Sequence record: MT129652.1 | DNA length: 64,000 nucleotides | Source of the DNA: Escherichia phage MN01 | Reading direction: 5' to 3' (one strand) | Part shown: piece after piece, positions 30,474 to 35,816 of the stretch | Position numbering within the stretch: the first letter of the stretch is position 1 | How the letters are laid out: every line of letters begins with the position of its first letter | Position numbers and translations under genes: made by a program | Notes under the pieces: generated by a model | What the model was told of the DNA's origin: nothing | Databases searched by the model: none | What the model saw: only the letters and a program-made list of their open reading frames with translations

Positions 30474-31028
30474 ATGAGCTTATATACTGACCTTATATCA
30501 AATGTAGATTGGTTTGGTGGGAGCGGTCTTGCCACTGAAACTAACACAGTTCTTTATAGAATCCGTGGTGACCTGGGTTATTCCAATGATTTCTTAAGAA
30601 GAACAACTAGTCGCGGCGATACTACCAAATTGCCTTTTATTTTTGCTTTAGCTGAAGACCTTTCTTTCGCAGATGCCTTGGAAATTATTGACGTGAATCT
30701 GGGTATTCAACGAGTGGAATTCGGTGGGCTGAGTTATTCAGTATATGCTTTAAACGAACCTAACGATTATAAACAACTTATTAATGCGGCTGATGATGAT
30801 CATTTGGTATGTTATTTGATGTTAGAAAATGGTGACCACTTTGGAATGGTTGACCGTCGTCCAACTTATACTGATATTAAAAATTATGATAAAGACGAGC
30901 TTATTATTTTAGCTGATGAATACACATTAGAGAGTCGTAAACAAAAACGGAAGCTTAACCGTTTTATTGCTGAATGTCGTGAATATGCTAAAGGGGTTCA
31001 AAATGCGAACGCTATATCTGCCAAGTAA
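30474..31028 (+). CDS. hypothetical protein, FIxEC-tail family
   Basis: start at the Met after GAGAGGAG; C-terminal ...KLNRFIAECREYAKG. Confidence 0.5.
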   Translation: MSLYTDLISNVDWFGGSGLATETNTVLYRIRGDLGYSNDFLRRTTSRGDTTKLPFIFALAEDLSFADALEIIDVNLGIQRVEFGGLSYSVYALNEPNDYKQLINAADDDHLVCYLMLENGDHFGMVDRRPTYTDIKNYDKDELIILADEYTLESRKQKRKLNRFIAECREYAKGVQNANAISAK

Positions 31029-31362
31029 ACCAGAAAAATTTGTATATGCAGACAAGATTGATAAAGACCTTATGCCAGCATTTGCAGGTCTGTCTATGTG
31101 CATCGTTGGAATTATAATGATGGTGGTTTGTGGGGATATGAATATTGTTAGTGCTAACATTGCCTGGACACTAACAATTTTAACTCCTTTTATTACAGTC
31201 CTGATTATGCTATTGATAAATGTGTGGCATCAAAATCATATGAATAAAGGATATCGTGGGCGAGTTAAAGAGTGGAAACAAAAATGTGTTTCCCTACAAG
31301 AAGAGCACAAAATTAAATGTGTCGAAGAATTTATTAAGGAGGTTCGTAATGGAACGGCCTAG
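31003..31362 (+). CDS. membrane protein, FIxEC-tail family
   Basis: start at MRTLYL after AAAGGGG; two transmembrane segments; C-terminal ...VEEFIKEVRNGTA. Confidence 0.5.
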   Translation: MRTLYLPSKPEKFVYADKIDKDLMPAFAGLSMCIVGIIMMVVCGDMNIVSANIAWTLTILTPFITVLIMLLINVWHQNHMNKGYRGRVKEWKQKCVSLQEEHKIKCVEEFIKEVRNGTA

Positions 31363-31702
31363 TCTTGCATCGCATGTTTATCAATTGGCTGAATATAATA
31401 TTGGTGCCAATTTATTATTGGGGATTGTCACCGCCATGCTTGGTGGTTTGGTTGGTCTGGTAATGACCACGGTTATGGCTGCAATTGAGGGAGTCATGCC
31501 TATTGAGATGGGCTTCTTTATGATAATTGCTCCGGCTGTTGTGGCTTATTTTATCCCGGTTGTGTATGATATCTGTCACACAAATGCCGTGAATGCTCCC
31601 AGCCGTAAGAGATATGCTTTGGCAATGGCTGAGTATAATAAGTTCCTAGACAAAACAAAACGTAATGACCTTGAAACCTTTATTAAGGAATGTAAATCAT
31701 GA
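31349..31702 (+). CDS. membrane protein, FIxEC-tail family
   Basis: start at MERPSL after AAGGAGG; multiple transmembrane segments; C-terminal ...LETFIKECKS. Confidence 0.55.
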   Translation: MERPSLASHVYQLAEYNIGANLLLGIVTAMLGGLVGLVMTTVMAAIEGVMPIEMGFFMIIAPAVVAYFIPVVYDICHTNAVNAPSRKRYALAMAEYNKFLDKTKRNDLETFIKECKS

Positions 31703-31989
31703 ATAAAATTGAAATTGAAATCCCTGAATACAACGACGAGAAATCCGCAGAAAAAGCCATCTATGACTTGCTGGGTAAAGTAGACACCATCGAATCCAAA
31801 TGTGAAGAAATTGCCGATAAGTACGGTATCCAATTCGGTACCGGCGATTACGGCACTGGCCGTACATATCATCCAGTTGGTTATGAATGTTCTGAATGGT
31901 TCGCCCACCATATTGAAAACAACGGTGGCCAGGTTGAAAACGGAATCGTTACTGTTGGCGCCTGGGTTTCCTCTTCTGAGGTGTGTTAA
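31699..31989 (+). CDS. small acidic protein, W-x-x-S-S-x-E-C C-terminal family (member 1)
   Basis: 96 aa; ends GAWVSSSEVC; shares EEIADKY with member 2. Confidence 0.55.
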   Translation: MNKIEIEIPEYNDEKSAEKAIYDLLGKVDTIESKCEEIADKYGIQFGTGDYGTGRTYHPVGYECSEWFAHHIENNGGQVENGIVTVGAWVSSSEVC

Positions 31990-31990
31990 T

Positions 31991-32272
31991 ATGATGAATG
32001 ATAACCATAACCAACCAGATCTTCTGGCCGCAGTAAAAGAAATCCATGAAGCCATTCGCCGTGCTGAGGAAATTGCAGACAAATATGAGACTCATTTTAA
32101 TATATACCCTGCTCGCGGTATGGGCGGTGACTATTATTCTCCTGGCGCCTTGAAAGCTGACCTTGCTCATTGGGAAGAAGATGGTCATCCTGAATGGGCC
32201 ATTGTTAATACTCATGACTACACAACCGACCTGGAAAATGGCGGTTGGGTGTCCTCTTCTTCTGAATGTTAA
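31991..32272 (+). CDS. small acidic protein, W-x-x-S-S-x-E-C family (member 2)
   Basis: start at the ATG two nt after the upstream stop; ends GGWVSSSSEC. Confidence 0.55.
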   Translation: MMNDNHNQPDLLAAVKEIHEAIRRAEEIADKYETHFNIYPARGMGGDYYSPGALKADLAHWEEDGHPEWAIVNTHDYTTDLENGGWVSSSSEC

Positions 32273-33504: not shown

Positions 33505-33523
33505 GTTATCTGAGGAAAATATT

Positions 33524-34483
33524 ATGATGTTAGTTATTGGTTCTCGTGCATTACATAACGCTGGCCTGATTGAAAGTCAGAAAATTGAAAACTCTGATTG
33601 GGACTTCATCGCTGACCAAGGTTCCTGGAACCACTTTAAAGCACGTATGTTCGGTGCTCATGTTCCTGTGGATAACCCTGATGTCCAAGCTTTTAAATGT
33701 ATGTACAATGGCAAAGAAACTTATTTTGAAGCTTATATTGTCCGTGCCCTGACCAACGTACGAGAAATTACTGGTGAGCTTCAAGACGAAGATTTCACCT
33801 CAAGTTATCGTCTCTTGAAATACGCTGAAAATCATATTAAGAAAGACCGTCTTACAGGTTTCTATTGGGCAACTCCTGATATTTGTCTGGCAATTAAACT
33901 GTCTCATCGTTACCTGAAGAACAATCCATTCTTCCTGAAGACCATGAGCCATATTAATTACCTTCGTAATAAGGGTGTTGTTCTTAATGATGAACTGCAG
34001 AAAATCATGCTGCAACGGCAGGCAGAAACACTGTCATACAGCCACCCTAAACTAGACGTGGGCAAGAAAACTTTCTTTAATGATACAATCTATACCCTTG
34101 ACCATGACTCCATCCACGAGGCCGTGGCGCTTGCTGATAAGCCTGCATATAAGTTCTATATGAAGGATGATTCAGAAGTCATGACCTCGCGTGAAAAATT
34201 TGAAGCACTCCCTGATGTTATTAAACTGGCAGGTGTTTATGAAGAAGCATGTGTACTTGCTCTGGAGCGTTCGCAGGTTCCCAATGAGTTTAATATCTCT
34301 CCATCCGTGAGCTTCCATATTGCTCTGGAAAAAGTCTGCACCTCCATTACTTCTGGATGGTTCCGTGAGTATGCCTGGGAACATTACCAGGAAGTGGTTA
34401 ATATGTACAACACCCTGGGTCGCGAAGACTATGTTAAACGTTTCAAGGCTAACCAACATTTAATTCGTCCTTTCACAAAATAA
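33524..34483 (+). CDS. hypothetical protein with GS...DxD motif (possible nucleotidyltransferase fold)
   Basis: start moved to MMLVIGSRAL after GAGGAAAA; N-terminal IGSRAL...SDWDF loosely resembles the pol-beta nucleotidyltransferase signature but with long spacing. Confidence 0.5.
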   Translation: MMLVIGSRALHNAGLIESQKIENSDWDFIADQGSWNHFKARMFGAHVPVDNPDVQAFKCMYNGKETYFEAYIVRALTNVREITGELQDEDFTSSYRLLKYAENHIKKDRLTGFYWATPDICLAIKLSHRYLKNNPFFLKTMSHINYLRNKGVVLNDELQKIMLQRQAETLSYSHPKLDVGKKTFFNDTIYTLDHDSIHEAVALADKPAYKFYMKDDSEVMTSREKFEALPDVIKLAGVYEEACVLALERSQVPNEFNISPSVSFHIALEKVCTSITSGWFREYAWEHYQEVVNMYNTLGREDYVKRFKANQHLIRPFTK

Positions 34484-34542
34484 GTGTGTACATCCAAGTG
34501 GGACTATGACACAATGGTCCCACAATCAATGAGGAAAATATT

Positions 34543-35229
34543 ATGAACGGTCCAAAAACTTTTAATTCTCAAGCTCATGCAGTAGGCAGTTTCGCTGGTA
34601 AAATTTCTAATGATAAAATCAAAAACGAAACTATGTTCTTTAACAGCTCATTGGCTTTCGCTTTTGACAATGGTGGCCCTATTACTCGTAGCTTTATCAT
34701 GAGTCTGCCGGATGATTGGAACACTGACCAGGTTGTATTTGATTCTCGGGTTCATATGCTTATGCCTGGTTGGTATCCTGCTATCCCAGGTTATCACCAT
34801 GATGATGTACCACGCCCGGATATTCCGGTTGGTCAACACTTTATTACTGCAGGGCAACCTGATTATGATAATCCTCGTTACCATTCTGAACATATTCTTG
34901 GTCTTGTTAACGCTGATGTGTGTCCTACTTATTTTGCAACCGGAACTGCGCAATTTAGTCAGATTCCTGAAGGCGAACTTATCTATCGCCAGTGGCATAA
35001 AGAAGTTCTGGAAAAAATTGAGTCCAATGAATTAACCAAGTGGGATGCTCCTGACCGCACGTTGCTCCAGTTTGATTGGCAGACATGGCATACAGGTTCT
35101 CGCGCAGTAAGTAATGGTTGGCGCTGGTTTGGTCGTGTGTCTCGTAATACTGACCGTGTTAAAAAGATTACAAATGAAATCCGCGTCAATGCTCAAGTAT
35201 ATCTGGAATTCCCTATGGAGGGCTGGTAA
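34543..35229 (+). CDS. hypothetical protein
   Basis: 228 aa; GAGGAAAA Shine-Dalgarno; preceded by promoter cassette and stem-loop. Confidence 0.5.
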   Translation: MNGPKTFNSQAHAVGSFAGKISNDKIKNETMFFNSSLAFAFDNGGPITRSFIMSLPDDWNTDQVVFDSRVHMLMPGWYPAIPGYHHDDVPRPDIPVGQHFITAGQPDYDNPRYHSEHILGLVNADVCPTYFATGTAQFSQIPEGELIYRQWHKEVLEKIESNELTKWDAPDRTLLQFDWQTWHTGSRAVSNGWRWFGRVSRNTDRVKKITNEIRVNAQVYLEFPMEGW

Positions 35230-35816
35230 TGGCCCTTTATGAACCCGGCTGCATGGGTGTTGATGTAAACTTCATCCGCCGGGCAGAAAATACAGGTATA
35301 ATTGTATCAAGAGACGAATTTATGATTACCAAAAAATATTGGGCGAACCTTGATGATGGTGATGAAGGAATCAAGGTGGAAAATGTTGATTGGTCGCGAT
35401 GCAATCGTCATGTGAAAGAGCTTTTAATTAAGGAATATAAAATGGGATACATCATTAATGGGCATCAACCAGAACCGCTCAAAGAACAGACACCCGACCC
35501 ATTAATTTCTTATAGCAAGAAATATGGATTTCGTACCTGGAGTGATGAATTTGATAAGTTGATTTGTTCCAGGTTTTATGCCTGGGCTGGAATCTTATTT
35601 TTACCATTCCTGTGGTTTTTCTTGACAGGCAAAAATGAAGCACCCGTAGCTGTAATGGGCGCGTGCTTTTCTACTGCTCTTGCTGGGCTTATTGCATCAT
35701 TTTTATGGACTATGGTTATTGAAGTACCTTTTCGTATTTCTAAAGTTAAAAAGGTATATGACGATATCACTAAGAAAAATACATTGAACTCCTTTATTGA
35801 GGAATGCCGTAAATGA
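35229..35816 (+). CDS. membrane protein, FIxEC-tail family
   Basis: 195 aa; C-terminal transmembrane segments then ...TLNSFIEECRK; ATGA overlap with the next gene. Confidence 0.5.
   Translation: MALYEPGCMGVDVNFIRRAENTGIIVSRDEFMITKKYWANLDDGDEGIKVENVDWSRCNRHVKELLIKEYKMGYIINGHQPEPLKEQTPDPLISYSKKYGFRTWSDEFDKLICSRFYAWAGILFLPFLWFFLTGKNEAPVAVMGACFSTALAGLIASFLWTMVIEVPFRISKVKKVYDDITKKNTLNSFIEECRK

Follow-up and report, generated by a model that had tools for sequence, protein, structure and literature searches.

A conserved C-terminal tail on proteins encoded between e.6 and lysozyme e in Escherichia phage MN01 and other T4-like phages

A stretch of 64,000 nucleotides of Escherichia phage MN01 (sequence record MT129652.1), in the following called the window, contains four genes, g1 to g4 (Table 1), whose proteins share a short conserved tail at or near the C-terminus. 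The window belongs to a Gaprivervirus, an SP18-like T4-type phage; over the 5.8 kb spanning the tail genes it is 87–94% identical to phages of this group. T4 and annotated relatives have, along this strand, the order e.6, e.5, e.4, e.3, (inserted genes), e.2, a small open reading frame (ORF), nudE, lysozyme e, the internal proteins and denV. The genes g1, g2, g3 and g4 are the e.5-, e.4-, e.3- and e.2-type genes of a T4-type phage, and they occupy the same place between e.6 and nudE as the uncharacterised genes e.2–e.5 of T4 (PHROGs 8788/2607, 2604, 2330 and 2203). Unlike in T4, approximately 3.5 kb of other genes are located between the e.3 and e.2 homologues of the window, and g4 is found two genes upstream of nudE, whereas T4 e.2 is directly upstream of it.

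The assignments were made from sequence and position. g2 is 29% identical to T4 e.4 over 128 aa (E 3e-14), and synteny agrees, since g2 lies downstream of the e.5-type gene; g3 is 23% identical to T4 e.3 over 122 aa (E 8e-10). g4 is 53% identical to T4 e.2 over the first 43 aa (E 3e-14) and has the features of the e.2 family, namely the N-terminal W..DDGDEGI..DW.C domain, a transmembrane (TM) hairpin and the position relative to nudE. Between g1 and T4 e.5, BLAST found similarity only within the 15-residue tail and not in the body, but the tail-stripped cluster of g1 matched the T4 e.5 cluster in hhalign with a probability of 90% (E 1.4e-6, 129 columns), and g1 is the first gene after e.6, as expected for the T4 e.5 family. 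The PHROG families matched by g1–g4 are exclusively of 'unknown function'. Scans of the four proteins against Pfam, NCBIfam and PADLOC gave sub-threshold matches only and no significant family, and e.6 likewise matched no family significantly; e.2 homologues carry the precomputed Pfam family PF26896.1, which the Pfam copy scanned did not include.

The tail and its distribution

The protein of g1 ends in ...KLNRFIAECREYAKGVQNANAISAK and that of g2 in ...VEEFIKEVRNGTA, and the ends of g3 and g4 are ...LETFIKECKS and ...LNSFIEECRK. In its general form the tail is hydrophobic-x-x-[F/W, rarely Y]-[I/V]-x-x-[C; V/S/I/M in e.4-type proteins]-[R/K]. An earlier note on this DNA had described the four genes as a family of membrane proteins that all end in FIxEC(R/K) next to the start of the following gene. 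All four ORFs with their similar tails are indeed present (Table 1), every tail lies just upstream of, or overlaps, the start of the next gene, and three of the four proteins (g2, g3 and g4) have TM segments as claimed. The proteins of g2, g3 and g4 do end in the tail, but in g1 the motif is followed by 15 further residues. FIxEC(R/K) describes g1, g3 and g4, g2 having Val in place of Cys, and the term membrane proteins proved too narrow, since g1 and eight other tail-bearing families are soluble. The hydropathy of g1 (Kyte-Doolittle, 19-residue mean) has a maximum of 1.27, without a TM segment; g2, g3 and g4 have two hydrophobic segments each, with peaks of 1.6–2.4.

When the window was searched in six frames for F[IV]x[ED]C[RK], three matches were found, each at one of these gene ends. 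For [FW][IV]xxC[RK], 0.24 matches were expected in residue-shuffled + strand proteins of the window (P(>=3) = 0.001). A looser match, FIADC at 42254, was rejected as spurious; it lies within the thymidine kinase gene but in another frame. In the DNA encoding the tails, only 14–19 of 27 nt are identical between the paralogues of the window.

T4 has corresponding tails in e.5 (...LEKFVKECREYVKAITIPSK; FVKECREY..), e.4 (...MKFVKESRCKSQS; FVKESR..) and e.3 (...MKEFVIDCRKIK; FVIDCRKIK). The annotated T4 e.2 (102 aa) is truncated, and its tail ...LNNFITECRKLK (FITECRKLK) is found in another frame (NC_000866, ~67500–67960, locus L003); an intact e.2 of 162 aa is present in other Tequatroviruses (L014–L016). 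Either the reference strain carries a frameshift here or the sequence contains an error, and the annotation calls for a correction in that the reference T4 e.2 entry represents a truncated gene. In a six-frame search of the whole T4 genome, the only real ORFs with the strict motif were e.5, e.3 and the frameshifted e.2.

The distribution of the tail was determined in 41 loci, 37 of which came from viral contigs anchored on e.6 (e.6 identity 98–51%; including Aeromonas phages 44RR and 65), in addition to the window, T4, SP18 and RZ. Among complete genomes of the Straboviridae, about 1100 carry e.6. Among 1435 gene-like ORFs on the + strand the strict motif occurred 130 times, and all 130 occurrences were in the last 31 residues; shuffled sequences gave 2.7 occurrences overall and 0.6 in the last 31 residues. 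The distance from the tail to the C-terminus is 0–24 residues. Within the interval from e.6 to lysozyme e, 130 of 510 genes had the motif, as against none of the 925 flanking genes. In 39 of the 41 loci the tail is on the first gene after e.6; in the remaining two this ORF is frameshifted or fragmentary. One contig (IMGVR_UViG_2706795553, L048; locus 1–8200) has nudE, lysozyme and two tail genes, the 8 kb upstream being unrelated and without e.6; the contig is possibly chimeric or wrongly arranged.

Distant phages have relaxed versions such as WIKGCRK, WIRSCRK, FIKHCRE, FINLCRD and FVDYCRR, and Tyr is found instead of Phe in one lineage. A position-specific scan revealed proteins in which Cys is replaced by V, S, I, M, L or A (for example FIKEVR, FVKESR, FVKEIR, FVMEMR, FIKNVR, FIKGIR and WIKEMK); all of these are C-terminal, nearly all are in the same interval and most are of the e.4 type. 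The literature on e.2–e.6, on phage PspA/Vipp1 and on hyperplastic regions was searched and nothing relevant was found; the tail motif is apparently undescribed so far.

After removal of the tails the bodies formed 25 BLAST clusters, of which nine were soluble and 16 had TM segments, in most cases a hairpin. Comparison of the soluble bodies by hhalign, with 50% as the threshold for a link, connected only e.5-type clusters (clusters 0 and 3 at 90%, 0 and 23 at 68%). Of the membrane bodies, 2 of 120 pairs were linked at >=80%, a result that for such short TM proteins leaves common descent undecided. The tail itself is retained: when homologues were collected with tail-less bodies, 130 of 132 had kept it and the other two were frameshifted. 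Distant relatives of e.3/e.4 from a library of 1.8 billion proteins have FIKECKS, FIREVR or FIDDCK at the end of a protein that has otherwise diverged. The exhaustive profile search yielded six representatives only, indicating that the e.3/e.4 family is small and fast-evolving, and a word-indexed search with g3 found close relatives only. The e.5-type sequences were selected for the tail; very few columns of their alignment reach a conservation of >=90%, and these include F, C and R of the tail. The residues F189, I190, E192, C193, R194 and K195 of the g4 tail are invariant in 17 homologues despite a mosaic TM region. This mosaic consists of the same N-domain and tail around an unrelated TM hairpin (P0083–P0086 compared with window 35229–35816); since N-domain and tail are nearly identical and the hairpin is unrelated, the e.2 family has apparently undergone recombination inside the gene.

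Peptide and ribosome-binding site at the gene junctions

Codon usage in the tails is near the genome background for Phe (62 TTT, 30 TTC), Ile (53 ATT, 16 ATC, 10 ATA) and Cys (51 TGT, 45 TGC), and all six Arg codons are in use. Replacements of F by W and of R by K need two or three base changes, so that the chemistry is kept and the bases are not. The next ATG follows the Phe codon at 19 to 95 nt, and the hydrophobic residue three positions before Phe (position -3, Phe being 0), F/W, I/V, C and R/K are conserved throughout; in the window, this distance amounts to 40 nt in g1 (with an alternative in-frame ATG at 22 nt), 19 nt in g2 and 20 nt each in g3 and g4. Background synonymous usage and variable spacing demonstrate that selection on the protein preserves F, I/V, C and R/K, and the tail is maintained by purifying selection on amino acids. 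AGR codons are enriched at the tail Arg (45% compared with 16% in the background), which indicates some additional pressure at the nucleotide level.

The Shine-Dalgarno (SD) sequence of the next gene is accommodated according to the length of the tail. When the ATG follows the Phe codon at 19–22 nt, the SD sequence is in the two variable codons (K-E AAGGAA, K-G AAAGGA, E-E GAGGAA, E-D, R-S), which are SD-like in 39 of 39 such junctions compared with 9 of 78 otherwise (Fisher 1e-22). At 23–29 nt it is in the Arg codon and the codon after it, and Arg is encoded by AGR in 24 of 33 cases, compared with 8 of 45 when the ATG is further away. At >=30 nt it is in the extension past the motif, and the variable positions accept any residue. 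The K/E-E residues of the window tails are mostly the SD sequence of the next gene placed in free positions. The tail is a clear case of dual coding: a hexapeptide in which four codons are fixed by protein function, and two codons plus the synonymous choice for Arg are free for the ribosome-binding site.

These data bear on the alternative that the tail is conserved only as nucleic acid, as the ribosome-binding site of the downstream gene, with the peptide a by-product of translational coupling. The position of every tail next to a start codon, SD sequences inside short tails (AAGGAGGT in g2, GAGGAA in g4) and the AGR bias would all fit. However, synonymous sites of F, I/V and C are at background, conservation of the motif is the same with the next ATG 30–95 nt away and the SD sequence in the extension, the exchanges between F and W and between R and K preserve chemistry instead of bases, and T4 e.3 (FVIDCRKIK) has no SD sequence inside the motif. 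Free synonymous codons and a spacing of 19–95 nt to the next start are not what pure coupling would leave behind, and we find this explanation hardly credible. The earlier note had offered an interaction motif or an embedded initiation region and had proposed a synonymous-site analysis to distinguish them. Both halves have a share in the answer: the constraint at F/W, I/V, C and R/K is on amino acids, and the SD sequence accounts for most of K/E-E. The synonymous-site analysis, in which conserved residues are kept as amino acids and synonymous codons vary, excludes a constraint by the ribosome-binding site only.

Two of the junctions are also repeats. The tail extension of g1 (..YAKGVQNA..) and the tail end of g2 (..FIKEVRNG..) are encoded by similar 16-nt stretches, AAAGGGGTTCAAAATG and AAGGAGGTTCGTAATG, each ending in the next ATG. 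In JS98-like phages (L008, L009) e.4 is missing exactly between AAAGGGGTTCAAAATG and AAGGAGGTTCGTAATG, and a hybrid tail, FIAECREYAKEVQNGTA, is directly followed by the start of e.3. The tail junctions act as short direct repeats for presence or absence of the e.4 cassette, and they show how gene cassettes come and go in the hyperplastic region.

Table 1 Tail genes, tail motifs and junction elements in the window of Escherichia phage MN01
Feature	Position	Strand	Remarks
e.6 homologue	29838..30431	+	upstream boundary of the tail-gene interval; weak candidate partner
g1, e.5-type, soluble, 184 aa	30474..31028	+	phrog_8788, E 2.6e-112; 15-residue extension after the tail
g1 tail motif L-N-R-F-I-A-E-C-R	30954..30980	+	
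SD AAAGGGGT (30990-30997), spacer and g2 ATG	30990..31005	+	also left direct repeat of the e.4 cassette
g2, e.4-type, 119 aa (125 aa if the start is the ATG at 30985)	31003..31362	+	phrog_2604, E 1.2e-41; two TM segments
g2 tail motif V-E-E-F-I-K-E-V-R	31321..31347	+	Cys-less variant typical of e.4-type
SD AAGGAGGT (31336-31343), spacer and g3 ATG	31336..31351	+	within the K-E-V codons of the g2 tail; also right direct repeat of the e.4 cassette
g3, e.3-type, 117 aa	31349..31702	+	phrog_2330, E 1.8e-45; two TM segments
g3 tail motif L-E-T-F-I-K-E-C-K	31670..31696	+	SD AAGGAA (31685-31690) for the gene starting at 31699
g4, e.2-type, 195 aa	35229..35816	+	phrog_2203, E 3.8e-65; N-terminal soluble domain, TM hairpin, cytoplasmic helix (predicted) with the tail at its end
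g4 tail motif L-N-S-F-I-E-E-C-R	35784..35810	+	SD GAGGAA (35799-35804) for the gene starting at 35813

A putative docking helix and its alternatives

The membrane families have a short loop between two hydrophobic segments. The stretch from the last TM segment to the tail is usually positive, with a net charge of +2 to +4 in most membrane clusters, and the motif starts 27–46 residues past the last detected TM segment. According to the positive-inside rule, this charge would place the tail in the cytoplasm, which fits the presence of tails on soluble proteins. An AlphaFold2 (AF2) model of g4 has helices at 106–133 and 139–194, the second of which runs unbroken from the second TM segment to the tail. 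Four residues, F (0), I (+1), C (+4) and the hydrophobic one at -3, would be on one helical face, and hydrophobic moments over 11 residues are 0.5–0.76. The charged cytoplasmic side, the predicted helix end and the shared face taken together make a docking or assembly helix the most likely role. The tail would be a short cytoplasmic helix at the end of a predicted continuous helix, by which fast-diversifying accessory proteins would attach, on the inner side of the membrane, to a single shared partner or to one another; it could be seen as a conserved 'handle' on variable 'cargo'. The data show a protein-level motif on about 25 sequence-unrelated bodies, restricted to the e.6-to-e interval; on balance we consider the whole reading, with the tail as a docking or assembly helix, probable, with moderate confidence. 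Self- or hetero-association of the tail helices would be one candidate mode of binding. The conserved nine-residue handle is the first shared feature for T4 e.2–e.5, ORFs that since their sequencing had been given neither a function nor a common trait, and it joins them and about 20 further ORFan families in T4-like phages of enterobacteria and Aeromonas into one system.

Several points weigh against this docking-helix reading. The docking role is putative and the binding partner hypothetical, the AF2 model of g4 is of low confidence (predicted local distance difference test, pLDDT, 55), and a simple hydrophobic docking face leaves the near-invariant Cys unexplained. The loci were anchored on e.6 or nudE, and the sample therefore consists of T4-like phages carrying these genes. 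Many of the 130 occurrences are orthologues, so that the independent cases number about 25 families and not 130. Furthermore, PHROG cross-hits join g2, g3 and g4, and g2 and g3 match each other in BLAST with an E of 0.001; the membrane bodies may be fast-diverged paralogues and not unrelated, and, given the cross-hits among g2–g4, the tail in these genes may have been inherited along with the rest of a single ancestral C-terminal domain.

One alternative is a tail without function of its own, the slowest-evolving remnant of an ancestral C-terminal domain in tandem paralogues, which spread to a few soluble genes by junction recombination. The PHROG cross-hits, the match of g3 to T4 e.3 and T4 e.4 alike, the spacing of 27–46 residues between last TM segment and motif in most membrane families, and a cassette loss that is demonstrably mediated by junction repeats are all consistent with it, but a functionless remnant is not expected to be invariant while synonymous sites and all other residues change. 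Since nine soluble families have the tail as well, of which seven show no detectable homology to any other soluble tail family, and since the two homologues out of 132 that lack it are frameshifted, we regard a mere remnant as improbable. Another alternative builds on the likeness to the capsid-targeting sequence (CTS) of internal proteins. The tail would then be a C-terminal version of the CTS with affinity for the prohead core; T4- and SP18-type tails would be cut by gp21 after I-x-E, and the soluble proteins would be packaged cargo, the membrane proteins tethers or decoys at the membrane-bound prohead. The CTS of T4 IPII, MKTYQEFIAEAR, and the tails both fit hydrophobic(-3)-x-x-F-I-x-E-[A/C/S]-[R/K], and a CTS of the window, MKTYQEFITEAK, likewise has F-I-x-E-[A/C/S]-[R/K] with a hydrophobic residue three before Phe. 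The pattern [FW][IV]xE[ACSV][RK] retrieved the four tails, three internal-protein CTSs and one spurious ORF from the window (six frames, ORFs of >=50 codons), and e.5, e.4, e.2, the IPII CTS and two others from T4. According to a review of T4 head assembly (PMC9026906), mutagenesis located targeting by the CTS mainly in residues 4 and 7 and its processing in residues 8 and 10; these align with tail positions -3, 0, +1 and +3. Positions -3, 0 and +1 are conserved in the CTS register in all tails, I-x-E is present in all four tails of the window, and internal proteins, too, combine a conserved handle with hypervariable bodies. Glu at +3, however, is found in only ~29% of families and tracks the SD sequence, the CTS does not share the invariant C-R of the tails, most tail families are integral membrane proteins, and the six-residue resemblance was noticed after the fact. 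Alt and gp21 have C-terminal propeptides that are processed by gp21 (PMC9026906), but their C-termini, when compared, had no likeness to the tail. A CTS-type tail is in our view distinctly unlikely. In a broader version, the tail would be a CTS-related C-terminal 'address label', by which any accessory gene that gains the nine-residue handle has its product sent to one phage-built structure, be it the membrane-bound prohead core with its protease or a scaffold such as e.6. This we consider unlikely, too, though with less reserve; if it were true, the e.2–e.5 ORFans and about 20 families would form a second polymorphic handle-and-cargo system beside the internal proteins.

The protein of e.6 could itself be the partner: the tails would dock onto e.6 as a Vipp1/PspA/ESCRT-III-like membrane scaffold, in the way PspB/PspC or LiaI anchor PspA or LiaH. 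The tail genes begin right after e.6, and the first of them is tailed in 39 of 41 loci. An AF2 model of e.6 (pLDDT 75) consists of an N-terminal helix and a hairpin of 56- and 60-residue helices, and the top eight PDB matches in Foldseek were all Vipp1 (E 2.5e-3 to 1.8e-2); a small profile gave weak colinear Vipp1 matches, and the C-terminus of e.6, IEEYINSLK, weakly fits the tail pattern. On the other hand, the latter scored just 2–4 bits with the position-specific scoring matrix of the tail, a profile of 30 e.6 sequences did not find Vipp1/PspA in the PDB, the Pfam family PspA_IM30 did not match e.6, and long hairpins match generically. Moreover, Karamvirus CC31 (NC_014662, 65257–70111, L086; also L066), in which the e.8, e.7, e.6 and e.5-type genes are missing, has four strict and one relaxed tail genes upstream of nudE, and no e.6 homologue was found in the 128 kb searched, which included all early regions. 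Directly after its tRNA cluster come the genes for a soluble tail protein, a DUF7275-type protein and four membrane proteins; the tail is strict in three of the latter and relaxed in one. The CC31 tails, without a detectable e.6 in these 128 kb, rule out e.6 as an obligate partner, and e.6 as an anchor is quite unlikely; like the CTS-like reading, it is a minority possibility. The earlier note had also seen candidates for superinfection exclusion or other envelope-acting functions in these genes. By hydropathy and charge, g2, g3 and g4 have two TM segments and a charged, presumably cytoplasmic C-terminus, as in class II holins, and g4 is located ~700 bp upstream of lysozyme e. However, BLASTP of g1–g4 found no similarity to T4 Imm, Sp, holin T, RI or Ac (no match to Imm, and only weak local matches to Sp with E 1.1 and 7.1), no Pfam, NCBIfam or PADLOC family was significant, no holin family matched, and the tail on soluble proteins would be unexplained. 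The genomic context suggested in the note does not apply either, since imm and sp of T4 are at 26.4 and 19.8 kb and e.2–e.5 at 67–69 kb. As judged from sequence and context, superinfection exclusion is without support, and we consider an exclusion or holin-like role of the tail proteins very improbable. A docking or assembly helix is the best-supported reading.

Neighbouring genes and comparison with known systems

Between the e.3 and e.2 homologues the window contains two conserved genes without a tail, at 33527–34483 (DUF7277+DUF7275, 318 aa) and 34543–35229 (228 aa, phrog_1843), and, at 31699–32949, five tandem small genes of ~70–96 aa, the first of which (31699–31986) matches phrog_899. 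These five proteins terminate in W-[V/F/Y]-[S/N/P]-S-S-x-x-C-stop (WVSSSEVC, WVSSSSEC, WVSSSYEC, WFNSSMSC and WYPSSC). They represent a second family of small genes with a C-terminal Cys tail, W...SS..C, which is also present in other T4-like loci, for example L017. GC-rich intergenic hairpins were found at 30434–30454, 29384–29403 and 36507–36521, such as GGGGGC-AAA-GCCCCC between e.6 and g1; they may serve in transcription or RNA processing, or mark the boundaries of cassettes. In a promoter and terminator scan, promoters were no more frequent than in shuffled sequences. Three internal-protein-like genes begin with a CTS, at positions 24516, 37027 and 37854 of the window, and the core of this CTS resembles the tail.

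The tail junctions are similar to the translationally coupled junctions that are common in T4, with ATGA or short overlaps and the SD sequence in the last codons of the upstream gene; they differ in that the flanking amino acids are conserved independently and that the SD sequence is in or out of the motif depending on tail length. T-even genomes undergo modular shuffling at conserved junctions, as seen in the polymorphism of the internal-protein locus and in promoter-stem-loop cassettes. There as here, presence/absence polymorphisms are bordered by short sequences conserved at the ends of genes, in the present case e.4 by the 16-nt repeats, but the repeat is a coding sequence under amino-acid selection combined with a ribosome-binding site and not a promoter/hairpin cassette.

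PspB/PspC and LiaI are small membrane partners of PspA-family scaffolds. The membrane-bound tail proteins resemble them as small membrane proteins with a predicted cytoplasmic C-terminal helix, whose genes adjoin a gene for a long helical-hairpin protein; there is no relationship in sequence or Pfam, e.6 is no more than a candidate member of the PspA/Vipp1 family, and CC31 demonstrates that co-occurrence with e.6 is not obligate. Another parallel, from the same phages, is the CTS of the T4 internal proteins (MKTYQEFIAE, cleaved by gp21), which is also a short, conserved handle for bodies that are hypervariable. It is located at the N-terminus, starting with the initiator Met (MKT...), whereas the tails are C-terminal. 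Unlike the CTS, the tails have an invariant Cys-Arg and no family-wide Glu, and they are carried mostly by membrane proteins.

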